Both the position numbers and the translations under genes were made by a program. Positions 18,264 through 60,850 of a stretch of 64,000 bases of DNA are shown here, in pieces. Where the stretch lies: the NCBI GenBank assembly GCA_037127955.1, contig JBAXXI010000002.1, forward strand, positions 8,377 to 72,376. The letters are read 5' to 3'. Under the pieces are notes generated by a model. It was not told where the DNA came from, ran no database searches, and saw only the letters and a list, made by a program, of their open reading frames with translations. Within the stretch, counting starts at the first letter, position 1. Each line of letters begins with the position of its first letter. The stretch is from Candidatus Berkelbacteria bacterium. GTDB taxonomy: Bacteria > Patescibacteriota > UBA1384 > UBA12157.

Positions 18264-20204
18264 TCACCGGATCCCAATGACATTAGTTAATAGAGCTTGA
18301 GCAGTATAAAGTAAAAGTAAACCTAGGACTACCCCCATCATTAAATCTTTGGCTGTGGTGATATTTTCTTGGTTACCCTGACTGGTCATGTACAAGTAAC
18401 CTGCGTACATAAAAATAGCAATAGCTAGTCCGCTTAAAATTGGTAAACCCCAAACAAAAAACTTGCTAATATAGTCACCAATATTATTAACCCTACCAAA
18501 GTCTGTATCTATATTACCTGTGGTATTTGATTGAGTTACGGGCGCGCCCACCGTTACATTGATTTTCCGAGATGGCGCCGCACCTTGAGCATAAACTTTA
18601 CTAAAAATATTTAAGAAACTTTCTTTCTGATTTTCCTCAATTAAAACTCTAACTTCATACTCGTGTTCACCTTCAGGAACATTTCTATCAATAAAGGTTC
18701 TACTGGCAGTTTCTCCAACCTGTTTTCCATCTCGATAGATTATAAAATTGGCTGGTGCATATAAATCATAAAATTGACCGATATCGATCGTAACATCATA
18801 ATTATTAACCGAGCTATTTACGGCGCCACTACTGTTACTACAATTTATACCGATTGTGGTAATATTCGACGGATTAACAGGATTTCGAGTACTAGCCGAA
18901 ACCGTACCCTCTTGTTTACAGTAATCTGTTTGATCGTTCGATTCGTTTTCATTAAAAACCTTAACCCTAATCAAATGATCGCCAGCACCTGTTCCCGAAG
19001 CAGATGTATTCCAGACATAATCAACAGTTTGATCCTCGCCAGTCAATAAACCGTGTGATTTCTGATAAAAACATTGGCCATTTTCAGGATTAGCGCATTT
19101 AGAACTCTTACTACTAACCCATAAATAATAAGTATAACCTTTTAACTTTTTAAAATTAATTTTTATTGGTGATTTCTGACCAAGTTTAATTTCACTCGGT
19201 GTGGTGATAATAATATCGCGTCCGCTTGATGGTATGACTGGATCGACTACTTTTGTCTGAGTCGGACTTGAAACAGTTTTATCGGGCGAAGTTGACGAAT
19301 CAGAATGAGGCTTACAACTATTTACTCCTGAATCAATATTATTTGGTGTGTTACCCTGCATTGAAACAACTTCTGCGCCAAGGTCACGATTAGTAATACT
19401 TAACAAAATATTCTTACCGCTTGGACAAGCCTGACGATACTCACTAGTAATTTTAGGAATATTAATACTTTGACCTGACTCACCAATAAAAACCTTCCTT
19501 GACAACCACTGAGTACCACTAAAAACCGTATTTGTCCCCTCTACTGGCAGATTCTCTCGACCCAACTGATCAATCGATGTAACAAATTTAACTTCATGAT
19601 TAGTATTTTTCCTGATTTTTGCTGCAAAAGGTTCAGTTTCAAAACTTTTACCGCTACCAGAAACTTTAAATATTAAAGAATTATCCTTTGGCACAGTTAA
19701 AGTCATAGTGACGGTTTCACCACTATGCCATTGAAAAGCTGGTGAAATAGGCGCCATATTCAAGCCGCTAGCTTCTGTTCTCCAGTAAGGACGAAAAACT
19801 ATCTGAGTTTGACTCGTATTGCCATTTTCGTCTTTACCAAGTTCCCATTCTAAACCAACATCTGATTCTTGTCCGTTAACATCTTTTATACCAAAATAAA
19901 TATCTGGATTATCCTTGGACTTACAATAATTATTAGAGGAATAAGTAACAGTCTGAAAACGATTATCATCAGGCTTAACACTGCCTAAAACAACGGTCGC
20001 CTCAATACCGGTAAAATTCCCCCGACTAGTATTTTTTAAATAATAAGCACCAGGAAAACAAGATTTTGAACTAACCATATTGTTAAGCTCATCCGCCGAG
20101 GAAAAAGGATTGCCTAAAACAAAAAACAAGATAATTAAAAAAACAATTATGATCAATGAGTACAACCAATATTTTTTGGCTTTAAATAGATTTCTTAATT
20201 TCAA
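18264..20204 (-). CDS. large surface protein with N-terminal TM and C-terminal VirB2/TrbC-pilin-like double-TM domain
   Basis: N-terminal anchor helix and roughly 550 aa of Ser/Thr/Asn-rich ectodomain. The C-terminal 70 aa has two hydrophobic helices separated by a short polar loop (…VWGLPILSGLAIAIFMYAGYLYMTSQGNQENITTAKDLMMGVVLGLLLLYTAQALL…). Confidence 0.55.
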   Translation of the reverse strand: MKLRNLFKAKKYWLYSLIIIVFLIILFFVLGNPFSSADELNNMVSSKSCFPGAYYLKNTSRGNFTGIEATVVLGSVKPDDNRFQTVTYSSNNYCKSKDNPDIYFGIKDVNGQESDVGLEWELGKDENGNTSQTQIVFRPYWRTEASGLNMAPISPAFQWHSGETVTMTLTVPKDNSLIFKVSGSGKSFETEPFAAKIRKNTNHEVKFVTSIDQLGRENLPVEGTNTVFSGTQWLSRKVFIGESGQSINIPKITSEYRQACPSGKNILLSITNRDLGAEVVSMQGNTPNNIDSGVNSCKPHSDSSTSPDKTVSSPTQTKVVDPVIPSSGRDIIITTPSEIKLGQKSPIKINFKKLKGYTYYLWVSSKSSKCANPENGQCFYQKSHGLLTGEDQTVDYVWNTSASGTGAGDHLIRVKVFNENESNDQTDYCKQEGTVSASTRNPVNPSNITTIGINCSNSSGAVNSSVNNYDVTIDIGQFYDLYAPANFIIYRDGKQVGETASRTFIDRNVPEGEHEYEVRVLIEENQKESFLNIFSKVYAQGAAPSRKINVTVGAPVTQSNTTGNIDTDFGRVNNIGDYISKFFVWGLPILSGLAIAIFMYAGYLYMTSQGNQENITTAKDLMMGVVLGLLLLYTAQALLTNVIGIR

Positions 20205-27811: not shown

Positions 27812-28285
27812 ATGAATCACAAAACCACTATCATAATTATTCTTCTTGTAATCAGTTTACTGGCCTCTCTTTTAATTCTAAAAATCACTTATCAACAGAA
27901 AATTGACAAAATAAATCAAGAAAAACAATTAATGATTACTGGTTATACTGAAGAAATCAAGAATGAAACTAACCCCAATATCCTAATCGAAAGTGGTTTG
28001 AAACAGCTTGAAAATGGTCAACCAGAATTAGCCATGATTAGCCTGAAAAAAGCCGTAACTGTTGAACCAAATTTCCGAGACGGATGGTTAACCTTAGGTT
28101 TGGCTCAATACACTCAAAAAGATTATCAAGCCGCTCTTACCTCTTTTCTAGCGGCAGAGAAAATTGACCCGATCAATGCCCAAACCTATCACTTTCTTAA
28201 TCTAACCTACACTAAACTCAAACAAAAAGATTTAGCTCTCATTGCCCAGGAAAAATTCGTTTTTCTAAACAAAAACCAGAAATAA
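27812..28285 (+). CDS. TPR-repeat protein with N-terminal membrane anchor
   Basis: N-terminal TM followed by 34-residue TPR-like repeats (…AMISLKKAVTVEPNFRDGWLTLGLAQYTQKDYQAALTSFLAAEKIDP…). Confidence 0.65.
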   Translation: MNHKTTIIIILLVISLLASLLILKITYQQKIDKINQEKQLMITGYTEEIKNETNPNILIESGLKQLENGQPELAMISLKKAVTVEPNFRDGWLTLGLAQYTQKDYQAALTSFLAAEKIDPINAQTYHFLNLTYTKLKQKDLALIAQEKFVFLNKNQK

Positions 28286-29648: not shown

Positions 29649-32354
29649 ATGTTTCAAAATTTTAAAAAAATTCCACAACTTTTATTCATTGCATTAGCTA
29701 TTTTTGGATTTGGCTATTTTTTGCAACATAATCATACAGATTTCAATACTAATATTGGTGTAGCCCACGCAGCCGTAACACTTGAACAATCGACCAAAAC
29801 CATAAATTCACTTCATGCCGAATTAACTTCAGCTACAGCTGCAAGTGAAGGCACTGCCTGGATCTTCAGCGTCTGGAAAGTCATGATGGGACTAGCCAAC
29901 GCTTTTGTCGCCATCATTTTGATTTTCTTTGCCTTTGTTAATATTGCCCATATCGAGTACGACACTTATCAACTCAAAAAAGCTTTACCGAAACTGATTA
30001 TTGGTATAGTTATGGCTAACTTTAGCATGCTTATTTGCCGCATGCTAGTTGATCTAGCCTCAGTCTTAACCGCTACTTTCACTCATAACCCAAAAGGTTT
30101 AATGGGTGGAATTATGTGCGCTATGGGCATTCATCCAAGTGGCAGTATCGGTGAATATTTTCTACAAATATTAGCTCAACAATGGCTCTGGATTCTTTTA
30201 GTTGTTTTGGCAGTCTTTATCTCGATTCTTTATCTAGGCATCTTATTACTCATTCGACATGGCGTTATCTTGGTTTTAGCAGCCGTCGCTCCAATTGCTT
30301 TTATTTTGCTCGCTTTTCCACCAACTGAAAGTTACTTTAAAAAATGGTGGGAATGGTTTGTTAGTTGGACTTTTATGGGTCCAATTATGACACTGATTCT
30401 TTGGATGGCTGGTATGGTTGGTGGCGCCGGAGAATTTACAGGCACAGTTTGCGCTCCAACTACAACTTTTAGCTGGCTCCGGGCGTTTACCACCCTGGCT
30501 TTACTCTATGTTGCCGGTATTGTTCCAAGTAAACTTGGTGGCGAAGTCATGGGCGCATACAAAAACGCGGTTCACGGCGCTGGTAAAGCTGCTTACGACA
30601 ATCCTTGGAGCAAACGCAAACGCGAAATCATGGGCAATGATCTAAAACACAAGTTTTATGGTAACACTAAACTTGGTCGCTGGATGGAACAAGGCGTCAG
30701 AAACGATGAAGCCATGCTTGAGGCACAAAAAAACGAAGAAGAAGTTCGCAAGGGTTTGCGCGACCTGACTACTCCTGACTCAACCGCTGAACGCAATGCA
30801 ATTGCTAAAGAACGTTTAATCAGATTAAAGACCGAACTTGAAAACCAGGGCGATGAAAGACTAGCTAAACATATGAAAATCAATATCGATGCCATTACTG
30901 ACACCGATTTAGCTAGCAAAAAACTCAAACGAGCCATGGATCAAATCAAGAAAAAAGGCATGACCGATGCCTACAAAGGCGCCAAAGGTGCAAAATTAAC
31001 TGAAGAAGATATTGAAGACGCTCAAGTTACTCGTGATCTTGACCAAGCTCAAAAACAACAAATGACGGCCGCTTATGACGACGATATTAAAGGTACGGCT
31101 TTGACTCAAAAAGATATTGAAGATGCTCGTGTGACCCGTGATTTAGAAGCAGCAAAAAAGAACAAAATGACACTGGCTTATAAAGGAGCAGGCGGCGATA
31201 AACTGGTTGAAGACGAACTTAAAGATGTTGTTGCTACTGGCAAAATGGAGAAAGCCAAAAACGATGCTACGGCTAGAGTTTATTTAGGTGCTACTGGTAG
31301 AAAAATGGCCGAATTTGAATCTGGTATTGCTAATTCACAAATGGCTATTGACAAAGTTAAAGACGATCAAAGAGTCTTAATGGCTACCGAGCGTTTAGCC
31401 GGCCATGAGATTATTCACGATTTAATTAAACAGTACGACAAAGACAACGAAGCCGCTGGCCGTCCATCAAACTTAAACAATGCTTATAAGGAAGTTGATA
31501 ACTTTACGATGGAATTGGCTAATGCTAAGACTGAACCAGAAAGAGTTGCCGCACAAGCTAAACTCGATATTGCCTTAACTAATTTAGAAACTGGAAAAAA
31601 AGCTTTTGCCGCCGACCTTCACAGTAAGGGTAAATTTGCAACAGCCAAAGACGCTGATGAATTTGTTGAAAATAGCCATTTACAACGCTACGAACGCACT
31701 AGACATATGGCTATTATCGGCAAGCGTGTTAATGACGATGCCACTGTCGATGCTCAAAGTATGTCTTCTAGCGCCGCTATCGGAGACTTGGTTAAATCAG
31801 ATGGCAGTCTCGACGGTGGTAGTTACGGCCCGTACACTTGGACAGCCAAGACCAATGAAGATTTCTGGAAAGGTGTTCGCTCTGACGATCCTGACTCCAG
31901 AGCTGGAGCCTTAGGTATTGCCACAAAACTTGATACCGTGAAACGTAAAATGCATGATTCTCAGACTCGAGGTGCGGCTATCAAGGATTACTCTAAGGTT
32001 ATTAGCGCCGGTAACCCTGAGTGTTTCAAAGCTCATATTTCTACAGCTATTCATGAATTAAAAGATGCTGAAAGAGCACAATTAGATAAAAGTCTTCGTG
32101 ATCGAGGTAAAACACCTGCAAGTGGTACAGATTTTACTTTAGAAGATTATAGTCGAATCTTAGGCGAAACAACTCTAGATACCACTACTCCTAATAGCGT
32201 TGAGAACAAATTTGCCAGTCGATTAATCAACTCTTTGCAACAAAATGATGATGCCGAAATAACTTACAAAGATGACGCTGGTGTCGATCAAACTATCAAA
32301 GGTGGTTTCACTGGTCTTGGTCGACAGTCACACTACTATGCCCGTATGGGTTAA
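29649..32354 (+). CDS. polytopic membrane protein, VirB6/TrbL-like N-terminal domain with about 500-aa charged repetitive C-terminal domain
   Basis: Roughly 6-7 TM helices in the first 300 aa with a VirB6-like topology (inferred, not searched). The C-terminal half contains internal repeats (DIEDAQVTRDLDQAQKQQMTAAYDDD / DIEDARVTRDLEAAKKNKMTLAYKGAGG). Confidence 0.4.
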   Translation: MFQNFKKIPQLLFIALAIFGFGYFLQHNHTDFNTNIGVAHAAVTLEQSTKTINSLHAELTSATAASEGTAWIFSVWKVMMGLANAFVAIILIFFAFVNIAHIEYDTYQLKKALPKLIIGIVMANFSMLICRMLVDLASVLTATFTHNPKGLMGGIMCAMGIHPSGSIGEYFLQILAQQWLWILLVVLAVFISILYLGILLLIRHGVILVLAAVAPIAFILLAFPPTESYFKKWWEWFVSWTFMGPIMTLILWMAGMVGGAGEFTGTVCAPTTTFSWLRAFTTLALLYVAGIVPSKLGGEVMGAYKNAVHGAGKAAYDNPWSKRKREIMGNDLKHKFYGNTKLGRWMEQGVRNDEAMLEAQKNEEEVRKGLRDLTTPDSTAERNAIAKERLIRLKTELENQGDERLAKHMKINIDAITDTDLASKKLKRAMDQIKKKGMTDAYKGAKGAKLTEEDIEDAQVTRDLDQAQKQQMTAAYDDDIKGTALTQKDIEDARVTRDLEAAKKNKMTLAYKGAGGDKLVEDELKDVVATGKMEKAKNDATARVYLGATGRKMAEFESGIANSQMAIDKVKDDQRVLMATERLAGHEIIHDLIKQYDKDNEAAGRPSNLNNAYKEVDNFTMELANAKTEPERVAAQAKLDIALTNLETGKKAFAADLHSKGKFATAKDADEFVENSHLQRYERTRHMAIIGKRVNDDATVDAQSMSSSAAIGDLVKSDGSLDGGSYGPYTWTAKTNEDFWKGVRSDDPDSRAGALGIATKLDTVKRKMHDSQTRGAAIKDYSKVISAGNPECFKAHISTAIHELKDAERAQLDKSLRDRGKTPASGTDFTLEDYSRILGETTLDTTTPNSVENKFASRLINSLQQNDDAEITYKDDAGVDQTIKGGFTGLGRQSHYYARMG

Positions 32355-47371: not shown

Positions 47372-48756
<1,385 letters not shown>

Positions 48757-48757
<1 letters not shown>

Positions 48758-48945
48758 TGACAAATCCTAATATTATAGAATACTTTTTAACTTTCTTATT
48801 TTTGGCTTCTTTAGTAGGTACAATTTTTGGATTTATTAAAAAAATAAAATGGCTAAAAATAACTGGTATTAGTGTCTTAATTCTTTTCTTGTTTTATATC
48901 GGTTTTATTAGCTGGATAGCTTTTCAAATAAGTAGTTGGGATTAA
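48757..48945 (+). CDS. small 2-TM membrane protein (62 aa) inserted between atpD and atpC
   Basis: ATG overlaps the atpD stop (TAATG). Two hydrophobic helices. Confidence 0.35.
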
Positions 48946-48949
48946 TTAA

Positions 48950-49363
48950 ATGAAAACATTCAATCTAAAACTTATCTCTCCCACTGGTATCAAGTACGAA
49001 GCTGAAGCAAATTCAGTCTTTTTGCCGACTCCAGACGGCGAAATTGAAGTTTTACCAGATCACATGCCTTTGGTAGCCTTGCTTTCACCGGGTGAAATCT
49101 TGATTAAACTTGATGGTAAAACTGAACATTTAGCCACCGATGGAGGTTTGGTTGAAATTAATAACAATACTGTCAAAATCATTGCCGATGCCGCCGAGTC
49201 TGCCGAAAACCTTGATGAATTAAAAATCATGGAAGCTAAAAAATTAGCCGAAGAAAGACTGGCCAACGCCAAAGACAATGTCGAATCCGCCGATGCCGCC
49301 GCTCACCTTGAAAAACAACTTTCCAGACTCCGAATTGTCACCAAGCACAAACATAGAAAATAA
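48950..49363 (+). CDS. atpC: F0F1 ATP synthase subunit epsilon
   Basis: N-terminal beta-sandwich (…VTPDGEIEVLPDHMPLVALL…) plus a C-terminal helical hairpin; 137 aa. Confidence 0.85.
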   Translation: MKTFNLKLISPTGIKYEAEANSVFLPTPDGEIEVLPDHMPLVALLSPGEILIKLDGKTEHLATDGGLVEINNNTVKIIADAAESAENLDELKIMEAKKLAEERLANAKDNVESADAAAHLEKQLSRLRIVTKHKHRK

Positions 49364-49383
49364 ATAATCAATCAAAGACACAA

Positions 49384-49416
49384 AAAACCGTTCTCAAAAT
49401 GAGAACGGTTTTTTGT
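49384..49416 (+). terminator. rho-independent terminator ending the atp operon
   Basis: AAAAAACCGTTCTC-AAAAT-GAGAACGGTTTTTT. Confidence 0.8.
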
Positions 49417-49460
49417 TGCATAGTACGCAAATTTAAATATTGTGATATAATTGATACAGT

Positions 49461-49558
49461 CTAAAGTTTAAAGATAAAAGTTGAAAGTTCATGGAATTAA
49501 TTATTTATATTAATGTTTTTCATATTACTTTAAACCTTTAACTTTATACTTTATACTA
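49461..49558. repeat. heptamer-tandem palindromic element (AAGTTTA type) upstream of PrgI-like gene
   Basis: CTAAAGTTTAAAGATAAAAGTTGAAAGTT - loop - ACTTTAAACCTTTAACTTTATACTTTATAC. Confidence 0.7.
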
Positions 49559-49588
49559 ACTTGGAGGAGGGATACTATTCAGTTTCAA

Positions 49589-50071
49589 GTGCCGCAAAAT
49601 ATAGATCTAGAGGACAAAATCGTCGGGCCACTCACGCTGACCCAGTTTTTGTATGTCCTAGGTGGTGGTTTGCTTGACTATATCTTGTTCCAATCTTTAG
49701 GTAAAAACTACTTCGGAATTTTCCTTTTAATCGGCGGCCCAATCGCCATCATTGCTTTGTCTTTAGCTTTTTTTAAGGTTCAAGAACAACCTTTGTCACA
49801 CTTTATTACTGTTGGTATCAGTTATTTAACTAGACCAAAAGTTAGAATCTGGAAAAGACTAGATAGCTACCCAACTGTTTTAACCGAACCACCAAAGAAA
49901 AAAGAAGAAGAACCGATTATTATTAAAAAACACTTAGAAAAAAGCGAATTAGACCAGTTAGCCTATAATTTAGACACTTTTCAGTCAGATAAACCAGAAG
50001 AGAAAAAGAAAATTGGCAGTATTACCAGCGCTTTTGAACAATTATTAAAAGAACAACCAAAACAAAAATAG
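49589..50071 (+). CDS. PrgI/VirB3-like T4SS membrane protein
   Basis: DKIVGPLTLTQFLYVLGGG followed by two TM helices. Sits upstream of the VirB4 genes as in Gram-positive T4SS. GTG start. Confidence 0.5.
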   Translation: MPQNIDLEDKIVGPLTLTQFLYVLGGGLLDYILFQSLGKNYFGIFLLIGGPIAIIALSLAFFKVQEQPLSHFITVGISYLTRPKVRIWKRLDSYPTVLTEPPKKKEEEPIIIKKHLEKSELDQLAYNLDTFQSDKPEEKKKIGSITSAFEQLLKEQPKQK

Positions 50072-50146
50072 ACTTATAGTAATTAAGACTTTTAGACTTA
50101 TAGAGGCGAACTATAAGCCTATAGATCTAAAAGTCTATAAGTCTGA
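50071..50146. repeat. heptamer-tandem palindromic element (TAAGACT/TATAGAC type) upstream of 50160 gene
   Basis: GACTTATAGTAATTAAGACTTTTAGACTTATAGAGG-CGAAC-TATAAGCCTATAGATCTAAAAGTCTATAAGTCTG. Confidence 0.65.
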
Positions 50147-50159
50147 TGCAGGAGGGGAA

Positions 50160-50849
50160 TTGGCAGACAAAAACTCACAACCAATTATCAGCACCCAAGA
50201 ATTTTTGAGTTTTGCTGAAATTCACGACGGAGTCGTCATTACTAAAACCGGAGAACTTCGGGTTCTATTAATGGCGTCATCGATCAATTTTTCCCTTAAA
50301 AGCGAACAGGAGCAAACAGCTATTGTTTATGCTTACCAAAATTTCTTAAACTCTCTGGCTTTTCCAATTCAAATTATGCTCCAATCTAGAAAACTAGATT
50401 TAACCAAATACATAGCTAAACTCAAAGAAATTAGTCGAGTTCAAACCAATGAACTTTTGCGCGGTCAAACCAATGACTACATCAATTACATCACCAGATT
50501 GATCGAAGTGGCCAATATTATGGATAAAAAGTTTTATGTGGTTGTCTCTTATATGCCACCGGTTTTAGACATAAAAAAAACTGGTCTATTTCCGTCGAAT
50601 AACGACACTTCGAAAATCAAAATGACCCCAGAAAGCTTTGAAAAATACCGTCAAGAATTATCGCAGCGCGTACAGGTAATTCAAAACGGATTAGGTTCAA
50701 TCGGAGTTCGTACTGCTCCACTTAATACTCAACAAGTTGTTGAACTTCTTTACGGTATATATAACCCTGAAGAAGCAGCTAAAGAAAAATTAATTAATTT
50801 TAATCATCTTAATTCAGATGTGATTGAGAGTGAAATAGAACAGCAATAA
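50160..50849 (+). CDS. VirB4 N-terminal-domain-like protein (229 aa), separate ORF
   Basis: FAEIHDGVVITKTGELRVLLMASSINFSLKSEQEQ… resembles the start of Gram-positive VirB4/PrgJ/TcpF proteins. TTG start after GGAGGGG. Assigned from memory. Confidence 0.45.
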   Translation: MADKNSQPIISTQEFLSFAEIHDGVVITKTGELRVLLMASSINFSLKSEQEQTAIVYAYQNFLNSLAFPIQIMLQSRKLDLTKYIAKLKEISRVQTNELLRGQTNDYINYITRLIEVANIMDKKFYVVVSYMPPVLDIKKTGLFPSNNDTSKIKMTPESFEKYRQELSQRVQVIQNGLGSIGVRTAPLNTQQVVELLYGIYNPEEAAKEKLINFNHLNSDVIESEIEQQ

Positions 50850-50889
50850 TTAGATTAAGGCTTGACGCGGAAATTTTCTGAGGAAAATT

Positions 50890-52935
50890 ATGAATAATCA
50901 AAATCAACAACCAAATATGCCAATGCAACCACCGAGACAGAATCCATTTTCTGGCGGTGCTGCTATTCCAATACAGGTAAACAAAACTCAACCTGTTAAT
51001 CAACCGATTCAAAATCCAAATTTAAGACAAAATCCTCAAGCGCCACAAGCTCAGCCACAGATGCAACCAAGGCCAGCTCAAATGCCGCCACAGGCCATGC
51101 CTCAAGTCAGACCAGTTCAAATCCCGAATACCAGACCGACTGTACCAACACAACCAGTCAAAAACATGATTCCAGTACTGAATCAACCAAATTTTCAACA
51201 GGGTCATAATTCACTTTTTGACTTGATTGCTCCCCCATCTTTTGAAAACAAACCGAACTATTTAAAAATCGGCAATATTTTTGTGCGCACTCTTTTTGTT
51301 TTTACTTACCCACGATACGTTATTACCAACTGGCTTTCGCCGATTATTAATTACGATATCACCATGGATATTTCCATGTTTATTCACCCAGTTGGGTCAA
51401 AAGAAACCATGGATCAACTTAAGAAAAAGGCCACTCAACTTGAATCATCGGAACAAATTGATCGCGAGAAAGGCTTAACCCGTGATCCAGAGAGAGAAAC
51501 TGCTATTTCAGATATTGAAAACCTACGCGACGTGCTTCAACGAGGTGAATTAAAACTGTTCCAGTACTCCTTATATTTTACAATTTATGCTCAAAGCGAG
51601 GCTGAACTCAACACCATTACTGAGCAGCTCGAATCGACTTTGGGCGGCATGTTAATTTATACTAAACAATCACTTTTACAGATGGAACAAGGCTTTAATT
51701 CCACGATTCCACTTGGTATCGATCAACTCAACGTTAAGCGAAATCTTGACACCGCTTCCCTCTCCACCACTTTTCCTTTTACTTCCTCAACTTTGTCGTC
51801 AAACGACGGTATTCTTTATGGTATCAATAGACACAATAATTCCTTAGTTTTATTTGACCGTTTTAATCTTGAAAATGCTAACTCAGTTGTTTTTGCCAAA
51901 TCAGGTTCAGGTAAATCTTACACGGTCAAACTTGAAGCGCTGCGTTCACTCATGCTTGGTACCGACGTCATTATTATTGACCCAGAAAATGAATATAAAG
52001 CTCTTTGCGATGCTGTCGGCGGTAATTATTTGGATATTTCTTTAAATTCCGATAAACGTATTAATCCGTTTGACTTACCAGTAGCCGGTATCGGTTTACA
52101 AGCTGGTGCTTCAGGAGACGACATTTTAAGAAGTAATATTACCATGCTCCATGGTTTAATTTCTTTAATGATGGGCAGAATCACTCAAGATGAATCCGCG
52201 CTTCTCGAAAAAGCTATTTATGAAACCTATAATCTTCGCGATATCACCAACGATATCAATACTCAAAAAAATGCCCCGCCACTTTTGGCCGATTTGCAGG
52301 CTATTTTAGCTAATATGACCGGCGCCGAAAGCTTAGTTAAACGTTTAACCAAATATACCGAAGGTACTTTTAAAGGTTTGTTTGACCAACCAACCAACTT
52401 TAATTTGGGTTCTGGCTTAACAGTGTTTAGTGTCCGGGATTTGGAAGATTCACTTCGCCCGATTGGTATGTACATGGTTTTAAATTACATTTGGCAAAGA
52501 ATTCGTTTTAATGTTAAAAAACGTATTATGATTATTGATGAAGCCTGGTGGATGATGCAATACGAAGATTCCGGTAAGTTCCTGTACGCCTTGGCCAAAC
52601 GTGGTCGTAAATATTTCTTAGGTTTAACTATTATTACTCAGGATGTTGAAGACTTTATTGATTCAAAATACGGTCGAGCCGTAGTCAACAACTCTTCGAT
52701 GCAAATTTTAATGAAGCAAAACCCAGCTTCAGTTGATAAAATCGCCACGGTTTTTGGTTTAACTGAAGGTGAAAAATTCATGTTACTTGAGTGCGAAGTG
52801 GGCGAAGGTTTATTTTTTGCCGGTCTCAACCACGTTGCCATTAAGGTTGTAGCCAGTTACACCGAAGACAGGATTATCACCACTAACCCACAAGAAATTC
52901 TTGATGCACAAAGCAAAAAAAGCTCTGATTTTTAG
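50890..52935 (+). CDS. virB4: VirB4/TrbE/PrgJ-family T4SS ATPase with P/Q-rich low-complexity N-terminus
   Basis: FAKSGSGKSY Walker A and IIDEAWWMM Walker B. …YPRYV…NWL…, DISMFIHP and FDRFNLENANSVV blocks. The first roughly 100 aa are Pro/Gln-rich. Confidence 0.85.
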   Translation: MNNQNQQPNMPMQPPRQNPFSGGAAIPIQVNKTQPVNQPIQNPNLRQNPQAPQAQPQMQPRPAQMPPQAMPQVRPVQIPNTRPTVPTQPVKNMIPVLNQPNFQQGHNSLFDLIAPPSFENKPNYLKIGNIFVRTLFVFTYPRYVITNWLSPIINYDITMDISMFIHPVGSKETMDQLKKKATQLESSEQIDREKGLTRDPERETAISDIENLRDVLQRGELKLFQYSLYFTIYAQSEAELNTITEQLESTLGGMLIYTKQSLLQMEQGFNSTIPLGIDQLNVKRNLDTASLSTTFPFTSSTLSSNDGILYGINRHNNSLVLFDRFNLENANSVVFAKSGSGKSYTVKLEALRSLMLGTDVIIIDPENEYKALCDAVGGNYLDISLNSDKRINPFDLPVAGIGLQAGASGDDILRSNITMLHGLISLMMGRITQDESALLEKAIYETYNLRDITNDINTQKNAPPLLADLQAILANMTGAESLVKRLTKYTEGTFKGLFDQPTNFNLGSGLTVFSVRDLEDSLRPIGMYMVLNYIWQRIRFNVKKRIMIIDEAWWMMQYEDSGKFLYALAKRGRKYFLGLTIITQDVEDFIDSKYGRAVVNNSSMQILMKQNPASVDKIATVFGLTEGEKFMLLECEVGEGLFFAGLNHVAIKVVASYTEDRIITTNPQEILDAQSKKSSDF

Positions 52936-52947
52936 ATTTATCAAAAA

Positions 52948-54147
52948 ATGAAACACATATACTTGAAACCAGAAAATAAAAAAGGTTTCGCGGTTGTTAT
53001 TGCAATTGTCATTGTAGTTATTTTGATAATTGTCTGTCTAATCGCTGCCGCTGCTTTTATTGGCGACCGTCAGGGAGCAAATGCTAATGGAGAGATGATC
53101 ACTAATAATTCTACTAATGGCAACAATGGGCAAACTACAAAATGTGCTAATATTAGCTTTGGTAGCAATTATTACCCTTGGATTAAAGATGCCTCTGCTA
53201 AATATTTAAATGGAGACGATGCCGCCTTAATAACCATGATAAACGCTGAATCAACATGGAACCCTAATGCTTCAAACCAAGGTCATGCAACTGGTTTAGG
53301 TCAATTTATGCCAAGAACAGCTAGAGGTTACCCAGAATTTGTTGGTGGTAACGATAAGCATGGTATCACTTGGCCAGCTGGAAATGTTTATGATATTTCA
53401 ACTGGTCATACTGACGATGCTCGATTCGATGCCAAAAGATCGATTTATGCTGCCGCGCATCTTCTTGGTGGGCAGATAGACCGATTTGGATCTTTAAAAG
53501 AAGCTTACGAGCAAGGTTATCACACTTACTGCAAAGAAAACACTGCTAAATGCCAACAACAAAAATCAGAGGCTCAAACGGCTAGTGCAAAAATCATCGA
53601 TAATTACAATATTCTAAAATCTGGCGGCAAATGTATTGATTCGTCTTCAAATATAGCCAATAGCACATCAAATGGTGCTTGCTTGCCAGTTGCTTTTATA
53701 CATGAAAACCACGGCGGATTTTGCGGTCGTGCTAGCCAAGCTCAAGTAGTTAATTATTTTAATCCGAATCAATATCCTTCTCCAACTTCTTCAGCTTTTC
53801 AAGAAAAAAATGGATTAAGCGCCAAGACAGTACATGATAAAAGTGGTAAACCATATATTGGTACAGGGCAATCAGCAAATATCGAAGCTGCCATCAACTC
53901 GATTCAAAAAGGTTTTCCGGTTATCGTTTATACTGATCTGGAAGGCGGACAACATATTTTTGTTCTAACCGGATATGATTCTGCCACTCAAACCTTTCGA
54001 GCAAACGACACTAACTCTGGAATTAGAGATAATTTTCAAACCACTTGTACATCAATTTTAGGCGGGCCAAGAGGAGTATTGCTAACAAAAGCAAATTTAT
54101 TAGCACATCTAGTACCTCAAGCAAACTATTTTATCCTAGTTCAATAA
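52948..54147 (+). CDS. VirB1-like cell-wall hydrolase: membrane anchor, lytic transglycosylase (SLT) domain, C-terminal papain-like (C39/CHAP-like) peptidase domain
   Basis: INAESTWNPNASN…ATGLGQFMP gives the SLT catalytic ES and GLxQ motifs. The C-terminus has Cys (…GFCGRASQAQ…) and His (GGQHIFVLTGYD) in a C39-like arrangement. Confidence 0.65.
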   Translation: MKHIYLKPENKKGFAVVIAIVIVVILIIVCLIAAAAFIGDRQGANANGEMITNNSTNGNNGQTTKCANISFGSNYYPWIKDASAKYLNGDDAALITMINAESTWNPNASNQGHATGLGQFMPRTARGYPEFVGGNDKHGITWPAGNVYDISTGHTDDARFDAKRSIYAAAHLLGGQIDRFGSLKEAYEQGYHTYCKENTAKCQQQKSEAQTASAKIIDNYNILKSGGKCIDSSSNIANSTSNGACLPVAFIHENHGGFCGRASQAQVVNYFNPNQYPSPTSSAFQEKNGLSAKTVHDKSGKPYIGTGQSANIEAAINSIQKGFPVIVYTDLEGGQHIFVLTGYDSATQTFRANDTNSGIRDNFQTTCTSILGGPRGVLLTKANLLAHLVPQANYFILVQ

Positions 54148-54177
54148 TTTTGATTAAAACAAGAGGGACAAAATAAA

Positions 54178-55215
54178 ATGAATAAAAAATTTATCTATAT
54201 AATTATCAGTATCGTTTTAGCCTTATTTATAGGAACTATTGCGCTAATTTTAATTACCACTAGTCCTGTCATAACACTTGGCAACCCCGCTAAAGATAGT
54301 ATTTTTATGCCTTTTATTGCGCCAAATAGCCGTACTATTTTTTACTATAACGGTGTCGATACAATCAAAAAATGGAACTTAACTAACAACCAAGTAGAAG
54401 ATTGGATTAAGTTTCCATTTACCTCTATCGACAACATTAATTACTCCCCTGATGGCAACCAGGCATTAATTTATTGGAGCAACCCACAAGGTAATAACAA
54501 TAATGAACGAACATGGCTTATTGATTTAAAAAATAAAAAAATCATTAAGGAAATTGGTCAAAACATCATAAATAATGCTTGGTCGCCAGATAGCAAAAGT
54601 ATTGTTTACCAGTTCTTTAGTCAAACCAATCACCAAAACGAATTAATAAAAGCCTTAGCAGACAATACTAATCAACAAGTTATTGCCAATCTTGACCTAA
54701 GTCTACCAATTGGTGAAGTTATAGATATTCTTTGGCCAAATAATCAAACTATTGTTTATTTTCCATTAAAAGAAGAAAAAACACCTGTAGACATTAAGTC
54801 GATCAATCTTAATGATCTCAAACAAAAAACTATTATCTCTCAAGTCTTACCGAATATAGCCAATATAATAACTGATCAAAATAAAATTATTATAAGTTTA
54901 TCTAATCAAGATGATGATATTGTCACTCTAAATATTTACGATCTAAACACTAATCAAACAAAAGCGATCGATAAAAATGATCTGTTTTTATCGAAAACCT
55001 CCCAAATCGCCAATACTAATATCTTTTATGCTGGTTGGCGCGGAGCAAAACAATCTACAGATAGTATTATCAGATTTGACACCGATGGAAAAATCGCAGT
55101 AATTAAGGCAAAATTACCAGACAAACTTGAAGTTTCCAACCTAATGTCTCCCGATAAGAAAACCTTATTTTTTCTTAACGGTAACCAACTTTATAAAATG
55201 ACAACCAACCTATGA
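54178..55215 (+). CDS. membrane-anchored PD40/TolB-like beta-propeller protein
   Basis: N-terminal TM, then repeated …YSPDGNQALIYWS… / …WSPDSKSIVYQF… blades. Confidence 0.5.
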   Translation: MNKKFIYIIISIVLALFIGTIALILITTSPVITLGNPAKDSIFMPFIAPNSRTIFYYNGVDTIKKWNLTNNQVEDWIKFPFTSIDNINYSPDGNQALIYWSNPQGNNNNERTWLIDLKNKKIIKEIGQNIINNAWSPDSKSIVYQFFSQTNHQNELIKALADNTNQQVIANLDLSLPIGEVIDILWPNNQTIVYFPLKEEKTPVDIKSINLNDLKQKTIISQVLPNIANIITDQNKIIISLSNQDDDIVTLNIYDLNTNQTKAIDKNDLFLSKTSQIANTNIFYAGWRGAKQSTDSIIRFDTDGKIAVIKAKLPDKLEVSNLMSPDKKTLFFLNGNQLYKMTTNL

Positions 55216-55222
55216 GGTCAAA

Positions 55223-55636
55223 ATGAAAAATAATTTTTTAAAAATTAGCTTAATTATTATCGGAATAATAACTGTGATTAGTATTGTTTTTATAGTTGTA
55301 AAAAATAATATAAAACAGGCACAAAACTCCCCTTCTAAACCAGTAACTCTAACTCAATTAGATCAATTCCCTGTCGAAAATGATAATTTTCGCATAACAT
55401 ACAATAACCAAAACAATACCTTGACCATCGTCCCTAAGATTCCTTTTGATACAACAGATTCACCAGAGTATTTTCTTTCAACCTATTGGAAAGACTATAC
55501 CAATCATGGCAAAGAAGCTCTTTCGTGGTTAAACACTCATAATGTTAATCAACAATTTAGAACTAATTATGGTATTGAAATTAACTGGTGGGCACAAGAA
55601 TGGTGGCCAAATGGCGTCACCGCACCAACGCTTTAA
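55223..55636 (+). CDS. small N-terminally anchored hypothetical protein (137 aa)
   Basis: Single N-terminal TM. Operonic with the upstream genes. Confidence 0.4.
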   Translation: MKNNFLKISLIIIGIITVISIVFIVVKNNIKQAQNSPSKPVTLTQLDQFPVENDNFRITYNNQNNTLTIVPKIPFDTTDSPEYFLSTYWKDYTNHGKEALSWLNTHNVNQQFRTNYGIEINWWAQEWWPNGVTAPTL

Positions 55637-55672
55637 CTAAAAAAGCAGTACATTTAAGTACTGCTTGCTGTA

Positions 55673-56611
55673 TTATTCTCCAGTATCATTTCCCCAATCT
55701 TCAGGAATGCACTCAAGACTGTTTTGTTTTTGATCGTAAGTAATTGAACAAGACCGAGTCGGATTGTCTTTACCGATCACATTATATAAATTATCAAAAT
55801 CGAAAAGTAAAGCTTCTGTTAGAGATAAATTCATATTCGTTTTGCCCGAACTTAAACGATCGCCAACCACCCCAGCTACTTCGATCTTGGGTTCAAACCA
55901 ATTAGCAATATTCTTTCGATACTTTTTATTAGTAAAATATTTTTTAGTTGCTGTGCCGCATTTTACTTTTTGTTCTGTTAAAAACTTGACTGGATCTCCA
56001 TCCTTTTTAACAATATCAATAATTTGCCAACCCATATGAATAAGTTTTGGCGCCGGATCAGAATAGGCTTTAGCTAAAATTTCCGGTGTTACCTTATAAC
56101 TTTTCTGATATTCCTGACTTAAATGAGGGTTAGGCCAACGAATTAATTTATAAGAAATCGTATCGCCATCTAACCATTCAGCCTCAGGAACATCATCGGT
56201 ACCTTTGACTGGCTTGGCGCAAAAACCAGCAATCCAATGAATATTTTTTTCGACTGGGTCAAAAATACCCAAAGTACCCGGGCCTCCATAATCATGCTTA
56301 TAGCTCTGATCAATCTCGTCATGGCAAGAAATAAAATCCATTAAAATTAAAAGTTTGCCTCCAGGTGACCAGCTGAAATAAACTGCCTGACCATTGTCAT
56401 CACTAAACCAAGTGATTCTTTCCCAAGTTGCGCCGGTGTCATAACTAATAAAAAGTTGCTGACCAGCTAACACTGTTCTAGCAATTTTTGCCATAACATG
56501 ATTCAGGGCTGGAGAGACAACCGCCTGATCAAGTTCAGAAATATTTTTATTTTCTTGGGCAAATGCCAAAAACGAAAATAAAAACACTAACCAAATTGTT
56601 AAGATACGCAT
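55673..56611 (-). CDS. secreted hypothetical protein (possible beta-propeller)
   Basis: Start set to MRILTIWLVFLFSFLAFAQ (signal peptide) with RBS AAGGGGA. The track ORF begins 20 codons earlier. Confidence 0.45.
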   Translation of the reverse strand: MRILTIWLVFLFSFLAFAQENKNISELDQAVVSPALNHVMAKIARTVLAGQQLFISYDTGATWERITWFSDDNGQAVYFSWSPGGKLLILMDFISCHDEIDQSYKHDYGGPGTLGIFDPVEKNIHWIAGFCAKPVKGTDDVPEAEWLDGDTISYKLIRWPNPHLSQEYQKSYKVTPEILAKAYSDPAPKLIHMGWQIIDIVKKDGDPVKFLTEQKVKCGTATKKYFTNKKYRKNIANWFEPKIEVAGVVGDRLSSGKTNMNLSLTEALLFDFDNLYNVIGKDNPTRSCSITYDQKQNSLECIPEDWGNDTGE

Positions 56612-56723
56612 GAATTTTCCCCTTTTTAAATAAGATGATTGTAGTTTACGCTTTTTCTCGAGAAAAGTCAAGGGATTATTTATAATTTTGCTAAGAAAAT
56701 GCTATGATAAATTAAGGAAGAAT

Positions 56724-59252
56724 ATGGCAGATAAAATTGATCCAAAGAAAATTGATGTCAAAACCACACCCAAAAAACCAGCCCCTGGTGGTTTTGATGT
56801 AACTCAAAATAAAGTCAGTGTTGAAGAAGTAAACAGTTCACAAGATAGTGTTATGGGTAGTACCGAAGAAACTCCAGAAATCCAAGAAATTCCTGTAAAT
56901 CAAGTAAATCAAGAGGTTCAACCAAATAATACTCAGGTCAAACAACAACCTGAAGCCCAACCTCAAACTGAATCTAAACCTCAAAATCAACCAGAAAAAG
57001 AAGAAGAACCGGCTCAGCAAGAAAATCCTGAGGAAGAGAACCCTGAAGAGGATGAAAAAGAAAAATCTGAGGACGAAAAAGAGGAAGAAGCTGAAGAAGA
57101 GGAACCTGAGGAGGAGGAAGAAAAAGAGGAAGAGCAGTCAGAACCAGAAGAAAACGAAGAAGAAAATCCAGAGAATGAAGAAAAGGAACCAGAAGAAGAA
57201 AGCCCCGAAACCGAAGAAAGTAATACACCAGAAAACGAAAATGCCGAAACTCCTGAAGCTGGCGAAACTAGCGCTTCACCAGAAGCTGCCGAAGGCGCAG
57301 AAGTAGCAGAGGGAGCCGAAACCGCCGAAGCAGCGGCAGCAGCCGAAGAAGCGGCCGTGGTTGCTGAGGAAGCCGTAGTAGCTGGCGAAGAAGTTGCGGC
57401 TGGCGCCGCCGGCGCCCCAATTTTACTGGTTGCTTTAGGTGTACTAGTCGTTATTTTATTGGTCATAATCGTCATTTTTGGCTTTATGGCTTGTCAGGCC
57501 TCTCAAGGTTATTTTGGTAAATCTACACCGATTCCTTCAGGTAAAGATTACGCCAACGTTAAAACTGTTTTAACAGCCGCAAACACCCAAACCAAAACCA
57601 GCACGGGCAAAAATATCAAAGGTTATAATCAATTAAATCTTAACAATAATGATAAAAAATTTATTGAGGACGGCTTAGCTGACAAACGCCTACTTGATGC
57701 TCTCAAATATCTATCTGATCGACACGCCTCTATTGGTATTAGTCATATTATCGACGGCTATCAAAATATGACGGTTAACCCAGAAGCCGGCGAATCCACT
57801 TCTCAAATTAATAGTAATATTTCGGCCCATAAAGAAGGTTTGGCCGCCGATATCGCCAGTGTTGATTTTGTTTACAAAGTTCTTGAGCCAAGCGAATATT
57901 GTCAAAATTTAGTCGCCTCAGCCTGCGGGCCGCTTGCTTTTGCCTGTAAACGTGCAGCCAAAGCCGCCAAGTGGGGCGATATTGTTTATTATCATGAAGA
58001 CGTAAAACAACCAAATTCAAATACCACTAATGTTGACGCAAACGGCAATCCTGTCACAAGTACCGACGGTTCAATCGATAATACTAATCTTGATCAAATC
58101 GGCACTAGTCTTGAAGAAATTAATGCTTCAAACACTGATATTTTAGCTCGATTAGAAGCTTTACAGAAAAAACTATCAGATCAAATTGCCAACTCAGGTC
58201 AAAATCAAGCAGCCCAACAGGATCAAATCCAACGACTTCAAAAAATTATTGACCAATATCGCATCACCATTACTAAACTAAACGATCTCAAAACCAAATT
58301 AGCCAAAATGGTCACTAGTATTCAAGATATGCAAACAAAACTTACTACTCTAAACACTAATTTAGGCACAGCTAGCAACGTCATGAGTAAACTCGGTGCC
58401 GGCAGTAGTACTCTAAACACACTTGGCGATATCACCAAGATTACCGGTCAAGTCAATCAAACCTTAAATATTACTAAAACTCAATTAAATAAATTGATCG
58501 GCGGTCTTAATCAAATCGTCATCACTTTTGTAAAACAATTAAGCATTGCGGAGGCCGCCACCAACTCAACTGATCTAGGTAATGCCATCGCGAACCTTGA
58601 AAGCAGTTCGTCTGACGCGAGCACCCTAGCGGGTTCAGACGCAATCAGCAATCTCGACACCGCCCTACCCGATCTAGATATTTTTAAAAATACTCTCGAT
58701 AGCGCGGCCATGGCTTTAGCCCAAAAAGAATTAGACAAACTAACTAATGAAGCTAAAGATGAAGCCGTGAGCAAGGTCAAAGATGAGTTAAATAAAGCTG
58801 TTGGCGAAAAGCTTGGTAGTGCTTTGGGCAGTCTTGGTCTGGGCGGCAGCGGCAATGAACTTTTACGCCAGAAATGTTTAGGAAATTTAACCTCTATCAC
58901 TCCTTCGAACACTAATTTCAATGGCACAGATTATGTCCAAGCCATCCCAATCAAACTTTCCTGGCAAGACAAAAAACCAGACGGCTTGATCGATCCGCGA
59001 GTTTATTATATGGTCTATCAACCAGAAGCCAGAGCCAAAGTTCACACTGTTATTAGCGAACTTCTTCAGTTTCCATATGACATGAATAACAAATTTTACT
59101 ATCGAATTGTTCAATTAATAACCTATAGCCAAGATCGCGATGTCGCCCCATTCTGGGATAAGCTCATTGATCTTTACGGTTTACCTCGGCCAGCCAATTT
59201 CGGACTTTTCTCCATGCCAGAAGCCTCGGATCAAATTCACGTCTCATACTAA
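56724..59252 (+). CDS. bitopic membrane protein with extreme Glu/Pro/Ala-rich N-terminal region and large coiled-coil ectodomain
   Basis: ATG at 56724 after AAGGAAG. Roughly 200 aa of E-rich low complexity, a TM (PILLVALGVLVVILLVIIVIFGF), then roughly 590 aa with helical heptads. Confidence 0.5.
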   Translation: MADKIDPKKIDVKTTPKKPAPGGFDVTQNKVSVEEVNSSQDSVMGSTEETPEIQEIPVNQVNQEVQPNNTQVKQQPEAQPQTESKPQNQPEKEEEPAQQENPEEENPEEDEKEKSEDEKEEEAEEEEPEEEEEKEEEQSEPEENEEENPENEEKEPEEESPETEESNTPENENAETPEAGETSASPEAAEGAEVAEGAETAEAAAAAEEAAVVAEEAVVAGEEVAAGAAGAPILLVALGVLVVILLVIIVIFGFMACQASQGYFGKSTPIPSGKDYANVKTVLTAANTQTKTSTGKNIKGYNQLNLNNNDKKFIEDGLADKRLLDALKYLSDRHASIGISHIIDGYQNMTVNPEAGESTSQINSNISAHKEGLAADIASVDFVYKVLEPSEYCQNLVASACGPLAFACKRAAKAAKWGDIVYYHEDVKQPNSNTTNVDANGNPVTSTDGSIDNTNLDQIGTSLEEINASNTDILARLEALQKKLSDQIANSGQNQAAQQDQIQRLQKIIDQYRITITKLNDLKTKLAKMVTSIQDMQTKLTTLNTNLGTASNVMSKLGAGSSTLNTLGDITKITGQVNQTLNITKTQLNKLIGGLNQIVITFVKQLSIAEAATNSTDLGNAIANLESSSSDASTLAGSDAISNLDTALPDLDIFKNTLDSAAMALAQKELDKLTNEAKDEAVSKVKDELNKAVGEKLGSALGSLGLGGSGNELLRQKCLGNLTSITPSNTNFNGTDYVQAIPIKLSWQDKKPDGLIDPRVYYMVYQPEARAKVHTVISELLQFPYDMNNKFYYRIVQLITYSQDRDVAPFWDKLIDLYGLPRPANFGLFSMPEASDQIHVSY

Positions 59253-59350
59253 ATAAAAAATCCCAGACATTTAGCCTGGGATTTTTTAGCTTGATACTCT
59301 ATTAAAAATAATGGATACTAATTTTAGGTTGATAAATTAAAGGATTACAA

Positions 59351-59629
59351 ATGGATATAATTAATAAATTTTTAGGCGGCAACTCCAAATATCAAAGGCT
59401 CGCCGGGCCGCTACGCGCCGCTCAAGTCTGCGACTCGGCCCGTTCGCTCGCCGATGGTCGTTTCGCGGTTCTGAGCTTTATAGACGGCTGCTTAACGGTC
59501 GGCGTCACCAGCTCCGCCGCCAGCGCCAACTTACAATTTGAACTACCTCAAATACAAAAAGAAATCAACGAAAAATTAAATTTCGAGTGGGTCAAAAAGA
59601 TCAGAATTAAAATTGTTTCAAGTTTTTAA
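59351..59629 (+). CDS. DUF721 (DciA-like) protein
   Basis: …LSFIDGCLTVGVTSSAASANLQFELPQIQKEINEKL… fits the DUF721 pattern (L.V.V.SSAWA.EL…LN) usually found near recF/dnaN. Confidence 0.55.
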   Translation: MDIINKFLGGNSKYQRLAGPLRAAQVCDSARSLADGRFAVLSFIDGCLTVGVTSSAASANLQFELPQIQKEINEKLNFEWVKKIRIKIVSSF

Positions 59630-60820: not shown

Positions 60821-60850
60821 AAAAATCCCGCGTAATTAAACGCGGGATTA
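60821..60850 (-). terminator. rho-independent terminator after the MBL-hydrolase gene
   Basis: On the minus strand: ATCCCGCG-TTTAATTA-CGCGGGAT followed by T6. Confidence 0.65.

Follow-up and report, generated by a model that had tools for sequence, protein, structure and literature searches.

The locus raises two questions: which machine is encoded by a row of genes that resembles the type IV secretion systems (T4SS) of Gram-positive bacteria, and what it does for the cell that carries it. The source contig belongs to a Candidatus Berkelbacteria MAG, of which a stretch of 64 kb, called here the window, was analysed. We consider it very probable that the locus is the core of a Patescibacteria-type T4SS, that is, a conjugation machine of monoderms (MPF-FATA) that became a vertically inherited chromosomal apparatus of episymbionts. 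The system has already been published for ultra-small episymbiotic Patescibacteria; the Berkelbacteria locus is a typical member, and its odd-looking partners are conserved parts. The gene cluster (window 49589-59252) is composed as follows.

49589..50071, + strand: PrgI/VirB3-like small membrane protein, 160 aa (Pfam PF12666)
50160..50849, + strand: TrsD-type protein of 229 aa, the N-terminal domain of VirB4 as a separate ORF (NCBIfam)
50890..52935, + strand: VirB4 ATPase, 681 aa, its N-terminal ~100 aa rich in Q/P (NCBIfam NF045971, Walker motifs)
52948..54147, + strand: membrane-anchored wall hydrolase, SLT + papain-like C39_2, 399 aa (Pfam)
54178..55215, + strand: membrane-anchored TolB/PD40-type beta-propeller, 345 aa (family profile)
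55223..55636, + strand: small protein of 137 aa with an N-terminal anchor (one TM segment)
55673..56671, - strand: secreted protein, ORF of 332 aa, public call of 312 aa from M21 (signal-like N-terminus)
56688..59252, + strand: giant membrane protein, ORF of 854 aa; likely start ATG at 56724, called as 842 aa

The matches of the cluster genes to known families were far beyond chance, and the gene order was found again in related genomes. An earlier note on this DNA had read the first three genes as a PrgI/VirB3-like protein with two TM segments, a VirB4-N-terminal-like ORF and a VirB4 ATPase, and the family searches bore this out. The 160-aa protein has two hydrophobic segments and reached 34.5 bits with PF12666 (gathering score 27, E 3e-8). 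The 229-aa ORF matched the TrsD/TraD model and, in VirB4 models, no more than the N-terminal ~120 positions; all of these matches were below the curated cut-offs (NCBIfam TrsD/TraD, E 1.7e-6; VirB4_plasma, E 7.9e-9; conju_CD1110, positions 11-120, E 3e-5). The 681-aa ORF passed the cut-off of NF045971 conju_CD1110 (350.5 bits against 325, E 2e-104, model positions 183-733 of 752), its top match among 16 VirB4/TraC-type families of NCBIfam. It was also matched by Pfam P-loop_TraG (E 1.3e-26) and carries a Walker A motif GSGKS at residue 339 and a Walker B motif IIDEAW at residue 548. An FtsK/HerA-type ATPase is not indicated, the DUF87 match being confined to the P-loop.

The best 80 genome matches to VirB4 showed 51-85% identity, and nearly all of them were labelled as Patescibacteria lineages or unclassified bacterial MAGs (single loci of this set are given below by their L numbers). 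Within these 80 loci, a PrgI homologue stood directly 5' of TrsD-VirB4 in 62, and TrsD adjoined VirB4 in 67. This bears on the idea that the cluster is a decaying, non-functional remnant with a broken virB4, which we regard as scarcely credible. It is true that VirB4 is distributed over two ORFs (229 aa and 681 aa) in different reading frames, the first ending 40 nt upstream of the second, with a low-complexity Q/P linker; but the split is the conserved TrsD arrangement, every ORF is intact, the ATPase and hydrolase motifs are kept, and the nearest relative has a VirB4 that is 85% identical and full synteny. The size of the ORFs suggests that TrsD and VirB4 are fused in L027, L038, L041 and L043, as a single ORF of 873-897 aa.

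The order PrgI, (TrsD), VirB4, hydrolase, likened in the earlier note to pCF10/pIP501-type systems, is shared by the MPF-FATA class as a whole (pCF10 Prg/Pcf, pIP501 Tra, pGO1/pSK41 Trs, C. difficile CTn2). The monoderm architecture without VirB7, VirB9 and VirB10 is common to both, and the window VirB4 belongs by its score to the CD1110 family. PrgK of pCF10 has the same set of wall-hydrolase domains, namely metallopeptidase-type, SLT and Cys peptidase (PMC11323569), whereas in the window these domains are spread over two proteins. The window further differs from the conjugative systems of this class in that coupling protein, relaxase and LPXTG adhesin are lacking in the 64 kb, in that the cluster is chromosomal and vertically inherited, and in carrying an extra TolB-like propeller and a VirB2-type pilin domain. 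No VirB8-like protein (PrgL/TraM, NTF2-like) was matched by sequence among the window ORFs, the 137-aa protein being a candidate for this part.

It could then be asked if the locus is an ICE or an integrated plasmid, functional in conjugation and moving DNA between cells, since the curated families nearest to it are ATPases for conjugal transfer in Gram-positive ICEs and it has the PrgI, TrsD and PrgK-like hydrolase set. We find this very improbable. Neither relaxase nor coupling protein (T4CP) was found among the scanned ORFs of at least 110 aa in the 64-kb window, where no match to a MOB-family relaxase was obtained; the same window ORFs gave no integrase, and a flanking tRNA was not detected within the 64 kb. 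The cluster has the ATP synthase operon on one side and DciA on the other, a placement common to L001, L025 and L028, and recF comes directly after DciA in L025 and L028. In addition, the phylum has few relaxases, and its VirB4 proteins are related along taxonomic lines (PMC12102498). With recF and dnaN at the end of the window and dnaA, then rpmH-rnpA-yidC, further along the contig, the cluster sits near the replication origin (dnaA/dnaN neighbourhood).

All this agrees with what has been described for Patescibacteria, where the VirB4 clade is nested in the monoderm MPF-FATA, has TrsD and PrgI as partners, occurs without relaxase and lies near oriC (Quinonero-Coronel et al. 2025, PMC12102498); the locus fits that description point by point, with its VirB4 as a probable member of the monophyletic clade. 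A homologous cluster, SEML1_0006-0019, is essential in Southlakia epibionticum (Wang et al. 2023, PMC10633639), where the T4SS is needed for epibiotic growth; among its products are a 1,113-aa protein with a Hedgehog/DD-peptidase domain and one that combines lysozyme and Cys protease (PMC10633639). The accessory genes of the window, which the earlier note could place in no canonical VirB/Prg set, are indeed outside that set, yet they are conserved partners of the system in Patescibacteria, with counterparts in SEML1_0005 (PEGA), 0006 (lysozyme + Cys protease) and 0007 (Hedgehog/DD-peptidase domain). Window and Patescibacteria T4SS have in common the PrgI-TrsD-VirB4 core with wall hydrolases directly downstream, a large protein of Hedgehog/DD-peptidase fold, an exported partner of PEGA/propeller type, the vicinity of recF-dnaN-dnaA and the absence of relaxase and T4CP nearby (64 kb scanned in the window); putative VirB6-like and VirB2-type pilin genes may be added to these. 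The comparison of gene order called for in the earlier note showed that in many of the best 80 loci hydrolase, propeller, giant and DciA/recF/dnaN/dnaA follow one another downstream.

The window departs from the Patescibacteria T4SS in the location of its channel and pilin genes. The following features, outside the cluster, are concerned.

27812..28285, + strand: anchored TPR protein (Pfam TPR), with whose gene the displaced VirB6 module (27812-33164) begins
29649..32354, + strand: VirB6-like membrane protein of 901 aa, polytopic, its C-terminal part large and hydrophilic (family membership)
18264..20204, - strand: protein of 646 aa carrying at its C-terminus a T4SS pilin domain of VirB2 type (Pfam PF18895)

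The VirB6-like gene is displaced ~17 kb upstream of PrgI, and the block between them includes metK and the ATP synthase operon. The Pfam scan of the 901-aa ORF itself gave no match, and its VirB6-like label is transitive, a prediction that goes through relatives: phmmer gave 29 matches in the family that elsewhere sits just 5' of PrgI (best E 4e-36, residues ~68-314). Of 27 members of this family, 10 matched TrbL/VirB6 (Pfam), two of them, L018 (32.6 bits) and L034 (31 bits), passing the gathering score in the same region. NCBIfam CD3337/EF1877 was matched by five members. L008, L009 and L018 likewise have a member of the TPR protein family 5' of their VirB6-like gene. While the Patescibacteria T4SS has a pilin array, the 64-kb window contains none, its one pilin-domain gene being the 646-aa fusion ~30 kb from the cluster. 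Its match with PF18895 was just above the gathering score (27.1 bits against 26.6); it has two C-terminal TM segments and is related to 25 pilin ORFs near virB4 in other loci.

The wall hydrolase of 399 aa, with a single N-terminal TM segment, exceeded the gathering scores of both SLT (39.5 bits against 21.3, E 4.7e-10) and Peptidase_C39_2 (39.4 bits against 24, E 1.2e-9), as the earlier note had supposed for its VirB1-type enzyme. Judged from these domains, it is a predicted functional equivalent of VirB1/PrgK. The strings AES (100), FCGRAS (258) and GGQHIF (333) are present and are presumably the catalytic motifs of these families. The corresponding hydrolase of the Patescibacteria T4SS has two lysozyme-like domains and a Cys protease, where that of the window has SLT and a C39-like domain. 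The next protein had been proposed as a PD40 propeller; its own match with PD40 was below threshold, and the proposal gained its strength from the profile of the family, which matched TolB structures with E 1.4e-26. This family comprises 49 ORFs across the best 80 loci, mostly right behind the hydrolase, and 17 of 38 members match PD40 and 15 of 38 match PEGA.

The giant protein can be divided into these parts.

56724-57419, + strand: acidic cytoplasmic N-terminus
57420-57512, + strand: TM segment
57606-58004 and 58854-59249, + strand: extracellular LAS-fold domain, in two halves
58005-58853, + strand: L/T/N/A/S-rich insertion of 283 aa, which parts the LAS halves

The N-terminal 232 residues, followed by the one TM segment, hold 78 D+E against 15 K+R; the acidic character that had been attributed to the whole protein stands for its N-terminal third and not for the remainder. 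A Hedgehog/DD-peptidase (LAS) fold is predicted for the extracellular domain, and this prediction is supported. The candidate zinc ligands H381, D388 and H851 are invariant across 50 sequences and fit H-x(3-6)-D plus a C-terminal His. The C-terminus SDQIHVSY gives Q-x-H and not H-x-H, while many relatives end in D-H-x-H-I-G-Y; with Gln in place of the first His, the domain may have no catalytic activity. For PrgK, a degenerate LytM domain is known (PMC11323569). Foldseek of the LAS model against PDB gave nothing significant, the PDB sequence search gave no matches, and among the curated M15, M23 and M74 models only Peptidase_M15_2 responded (E 0.009, 16 bits against a gathering score of 27). 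Compared with LAS zinc peptidases (MepA/M74, M15 VanX/VanY, phage L-Ala-D-Glu peptidases, Hedgehog N-domain), the domain is of ~265 aa with extra helices, and it differs in the Gln and in its split halves. The split also distinguishes it from the LAS domain of the Patescibacteria T4SS, which is contiguous and C-terminal. Members of the family differ in the gap between the halves, which can be as short as 15 aa or as long as about 1,500 aa, with lengths grouped around 90, 330, 600-700 and 1,050 aa.

A joint reading of these features, which we offer as doubtful, is that the giant is an undescribed T4SS component of the Berkelbacteria group, an interrupted LAS wall peptidase with stalk, docking tail and scaffold role. 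A helical stalk could interrupt the catalytic domain at the tip of a beta-hairpin and could serve as a ruler or as an element reaching from the symbiont envelope to the host wall, and the acidic tail could dock on the VirB4/TrsD core. The giant and the TolB-like propeller would then form a wall-spanning scaffold replacing the missing VirB8 and adhesin functions.

Returning to the Patescibacteria-type T4SS, its conserved membrane and energy core is made up of PrgI/VirB3, the VirB4 ATPase and TrsD, which is the N-domain detached from VirB4. The VirB6-like channel protein and the pilin-domain protein are presumably supplied from elsewhere in the window, and the TolB-like propeller is a conserved partner. 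Three domains of wall-hydrolase type are carried by two anchored proteins, SLT and papain-like by the 399-aa protein and LAS-fold by the giant. The hydrolases would open the cell's own wall, perhaps also that of the host, so that translocon and VirB2-type filament could assemble, and VirB4 would drive assembly and transport. Most likely, we infer, the system serves not to conjugate DNA but to export proteins or a pilus where the cell touches its host bacterium; our confidence in export over import is about even. The role in host interaction of an episymbiont, put forward in the earlier note, would be in line with the literature.

An import machine would be the same apparatus directed inward, taking up host DNA, RNA or macromolecules as nutrients, like H. 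pylori ComB or archaeal Ced; this we judge unlikely. The review that names the T4SS as a candidate route of nucleotide acquisition does so on the ground that S. epibionticum can dispense with comEC (PMC11665869), and the lack of relaxase and T4CP in the window would suit such a use. VirB4 does match the DNA-import ATPases CedB (E 1e-13) and CedD (8e-6), but far below the cut-offs and with scores far weaker than those to conjugative VirB4 families. A DNA-binding or nuclease component was not seen in the cluster, and VirB2-type pilins with wall hydrolases are equally consistent with export or attachment.

No T4SS before that of Patescibacteria had been shown to be indispensable to the cell that carries it. 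To this system the locus adds a Berkelbacteria example and leaves the picture of what the system is unchanged. Several partners beyond the VirB/Prg vocabulary are conserved, namely the TolB-like propeller and the split LAS-fold giant with its insertion of variable length, and they are candidates for the missing envelope-spanning components.

Two further genes lie in this stretch. The 137-aa protein had no family match in Pfam or NCBIfam; homologues were found at the same position in L001 (E 2e-31) and, more distant, in L023 and L035. The minus-strand protein has an N-terminus resembling a signal (MRILTIWLVFLFSFLAFA); at residue 76 lies the string SYDTGATW, which is Asp-box-like. Among the best 80 loci it has a detectable homologue only in L001, and it is uncertain that it is part of the T4SS. 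Described before as divergent, its gene is so only with respect to the giant gene and is convergent with the upstream operon. Two hairpins were found as well.

55643..55666, no strand: bidirectional terminator-like hairpin, 9-bp stem on both strands, between the convergent genes
59254..59288, no strand: terminator-like hairpin, 15-bp stem with A/T runs on either side, 3' of the giant gene

The ORF listing and the HMM scans back the gene cluster claimed in the earlier note, which consists of the following features:

49589-55636, plus strand, six co-directional genes
55673-56671, minus strand, single gene
56688-59252, plus strand, large gene encoding the giant protein

The identities proposed for PrgI, VirB4 and the hydrolase were borne out by the HMM scan. 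The PrgI model was matched at 34.5 bits (gathering score 27), the 399-aa protein contained SLT and Peptidase_C39_2 domains, each over threshold, and the 681-aa ATPase, in which Walker A and Walker B motifs were located, scored above the curated cut-off for CD1110, a VirB4-like family (350.5 versus 325 bits, E 2e-104), and also matched P-loop_TraG (E 1e-26). Residue strings in the 399-aa hydrolase were read as what we take to be catalytic motifs. The ATPase did not group with FtsK or HerA in the scan and its DUF87 match spanned the P-loop only, which agrees with its assignment to a type IV secretion system (T4SS) family. The match of the 229-aa ORF was confined to the first ~120 positions of the VirB4 models and to the TrsD/TraD model. 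By pattern matching, strong hairpins were located at 49380-49416, 55643-55666 (bidirectional) and 59254-59288, and a promoter-like site for the giant gene at 56658-56686; judging from the sequence, the hairpin positions are consistent with two transcription units.

Gene order was compared across related genomes by scanning one genome per species. This gave 573 loci with a relative, and the best 80 (51-85% identity), labelled almost all as Patescibacteria lineages or unclassified bacterial MAGs, were retained. Among these, PrgI was found upstream of VirB4 in 62 of 80 loci and TrsD in 67 of 80, and the loci departing from this order included Gracilibacteria and Peribacteria, in agreement with what has been reported in the literature. 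ORFs of 873-897 aa in some loci correspond by size to a TrsD-VirB4 fusion, which suggests that the two are fused there and supports TrsD as a detached VirB4 N-terminal domain. The possibility that the split is a frameshift pseudogene was rejected because it is conserved in those 67 loci, and decay of the cluster is unlikely. When the neighbouring ORFs in the best 80 loci were clustered, one succession of genes recurred downstream: a ~400-aa hydrolase, the propeller family, a giant protein (850 aa to more than 2,000 aa) and then DciA/recF/dnaN/dnaA. The nearest relative (L001) had the entire gene order in common with the window, including the 137-aa and minus-strand genes, and an ATP synthase operon lay directly 5' of PrgI in this locus and in L025 and L028.

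In the window, the cluster comes after the ATP synthase operon atpHAGDC and is followed by DciA, a PycTM-like gene, recF and dnaN. The giant protein was identical to a hypothetical protein of the Candidatus Berkelbacteria MAG GCA_964547745.1, and on its 228-kb contig CAZJOX010000001.1 the genes dnaN, dnaA and rpmH-rnpA-yidD-yidC-jag lie directly past the window end, which puts the cluster within a few kb of the region of the replication origin. There were no tRNAs in the 64-kb window, and no integrase, relaxase or VirD4-type protein among its scanned ORFs. Conjugation-specific genes are thus absent within the 64 kb, and conjugation is an unlikely role for the cluster. Between DciA and recF (59351-62247) the window had PycTM-like, MBL-fold and 125-aa membrane genes. 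DciA was on the plus strand in the window and in the nearest relative, but shared the strand of recF in L023, L025 and L028; its orientation and the genes between it and recF suggest a local rearrangement beside the origin region. The PycTM-like gene (59626-60198, minus strand) encodes an orphan two-TM protein of the Pycsar effector type (PF18967, E 2e-10), with no cyclase gene nearby, and among the best 80 of 573 loci its homologue was seen in the nearest relative only.

The earlier reading of the cluster as a T4SS is supported, and a system of this kind is already known in Patescibacteria. It was described by Quinonero-Coronel et al. in 2025 (PMC12102498), with VirB4 in about 80% of Patescibacteria genomes forming a clade nested in MPF-FATA, variable association of VirB1, VirB8 seldom detectable, VirB2-like pilins present, relaxases almost absent and the cluster near dnaA/dnaN; the main text makes no mention of the propeller partner or of Berkelbacteria. 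In S. epibionticum, SEML1_0006-0019, located beside dnaA-dnaN-recF, are essential for epibiotic growth (Wang et al. 2023, PMC10633639). The structure-based table of that work gives SEML1_0005 as PEGA, SEML1_0006 as two lysozyme-like domains plus a cysteine proteinase, and SEML1_0007 (1,113 aa) as carrying a Hedgehog/DD-peptidase domain, so the partners considered atypical in the earlier note have counterparts there. PrgK of pCF10 has LytM (degenerate), SLT and CHAP domains on one protein (PMC11323569), whereas in the window the same kind of set is distributed across two proteins. The points added here are a split LAS domain with a length-variable insertion, a conserved TolB-like propeller and a displaced VirB6 module.

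The giant protein consists of two conserved modules with a variable region between them. The N-module has an invariant S-x-H-x2-G-x-A-x-D motif, and the C-module carries H-[IV]-[GSA]-Y at the protein C-terminus. An exhaustive search of 1.84 billion protein representatives gave just 71 members of the family; with the profile of the N-module, a word-indexed protein search yielded only 2 proteins. In one member (P0074), a secreted protein of 217 aa, both modules are nearly contiguous. Among the representatives, the module matches are separated by as few as 15 and as many as about 1,085 aa; in the genome loci the gap reaches about 1,500 aa, and its length distribution is multimodal. We modelled residues 307-439 of the window protein joined to residues 723-854. 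With a 5-sequence alignment the AlphaFold result had a pLDDT of 47 and was discarded; with a 50-sequence alignment, used instead, the halves formed one confident domain (pLDDT 94.9, pTM 0.90). In this model the junction is located between the neighbouring strands E124-129 and E135-143, and it is read as a β-hairpin tip. Foldseek against the PDB with the joined-domain model was negative or sub-threshold, no PDB sequence was matched by the joined domain or by its profile, and all sequence-level comparisons of this domain were negative or below threshold. We conclude that a LAS-fold domain, a putative peptidase, is present in the giant protein and is interrupted by a 283-aa insertion. The triad H381/D388/H851 is conserved; the window protein has Gln in place of the first His of H-x-H, which many relatives retain. 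HMM scans of the insertion gave weak coiled-coil-type matches.

Gap lengths in the family (P0001-P0074) cluster around 90, 290-410, 515-730 and 1,020-1,085 aa, which suggests stepwise expansion of an inserted stalk. Four pairwise matches to the giant protein (loci L072, L040, L049 and L068) were set aside as lying wholly within its acidic low-complexity N-terminus, and two more (L031 and L016) as running from this N-terminus through the TM segment.

The propeller family comprised 49 ORFs among the best 80 loci. Its profile matched TolB structures at E 1e-26; of 38 members, 17 matched PD40 and 15 matched PEGA. The 137-aa anchored protein was weighed as a VirB8-like component; sequence matches were absent, and its ectodomain of ~100 aa is short for an NTF2-like fold. 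At 54001-56000, covering the propeller and 137-aa genes, G+C falls to 0.32, versus about 0.38-0.40 in the rest of the cluster.

The gene at 29649-32354 (901 aa, N-terminal TM bundle) matched, at E 4e-36, a family located directly 5' of PrgI in 29 other loci. TrbL/VirB6 was matched by 10 of 27 members of this family, two of them over threshold across the homologous region, and five members had matches to CD3337/EF1877, a mobilome membrane family. Another family of upstream partners includes the TPR gene at 27812-28285. Considering that LeuRS, a TPR-like gene and a VirB6-like gene are found in that order 5' of PrgI in L027, L038 and L043, we infer that the module at 27.8-33.2 kb represents the other half of the T4SS cluster, displaced from it. 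For the two ORFs flanking the VirB6-like gene (427 and 264 aa), no homologue was detected in the families that lie upstream in the other loci. A C-terminal T4SS_pilin domain was present in the gene at 18264-20204.

VirB4, TrsD, PrgI and the VirB6-like protein would assemble as a translocon through the wall, helped by the anchored hydrolases, and may serve contact with a host bacterium. The translocon would most likely export proteins or a pilus, the main alternative being import of host macromolecules.

About 16 kb (33200-49500) separate the VirB6 module from PrgI; in Saccharimonadales-like loci both halves adjoin. This block contains metK, a NIF3-like gene, the ATP synthase operon and several ORFs, as follows:

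33741-34634, ORF without any family match
34813-35871, ORF without any family match
36414-38204, ORF without any family match

The protein encoded at 35876-36223 (minus strand) is 115 aa long, matches DUF5663 weakly and belongs to a family of small proteins adjoining T4SS genes in L003, L005, L035 and L051. Just 5' of the VirB6 module, 27377-27742 (plus strand) encodes a 121-aa "23S rRNA-intervening sequence protein" (PF05635). This family (27 ORFs, hmmsearch E 1e-47) occupies varying intergenic sites inside T4SS clusters of many Patescibacteria loci, such as L004, L005, L016, L018, L049 and L061-L064, and appears to be a small gene of the mobile or selfish kind.
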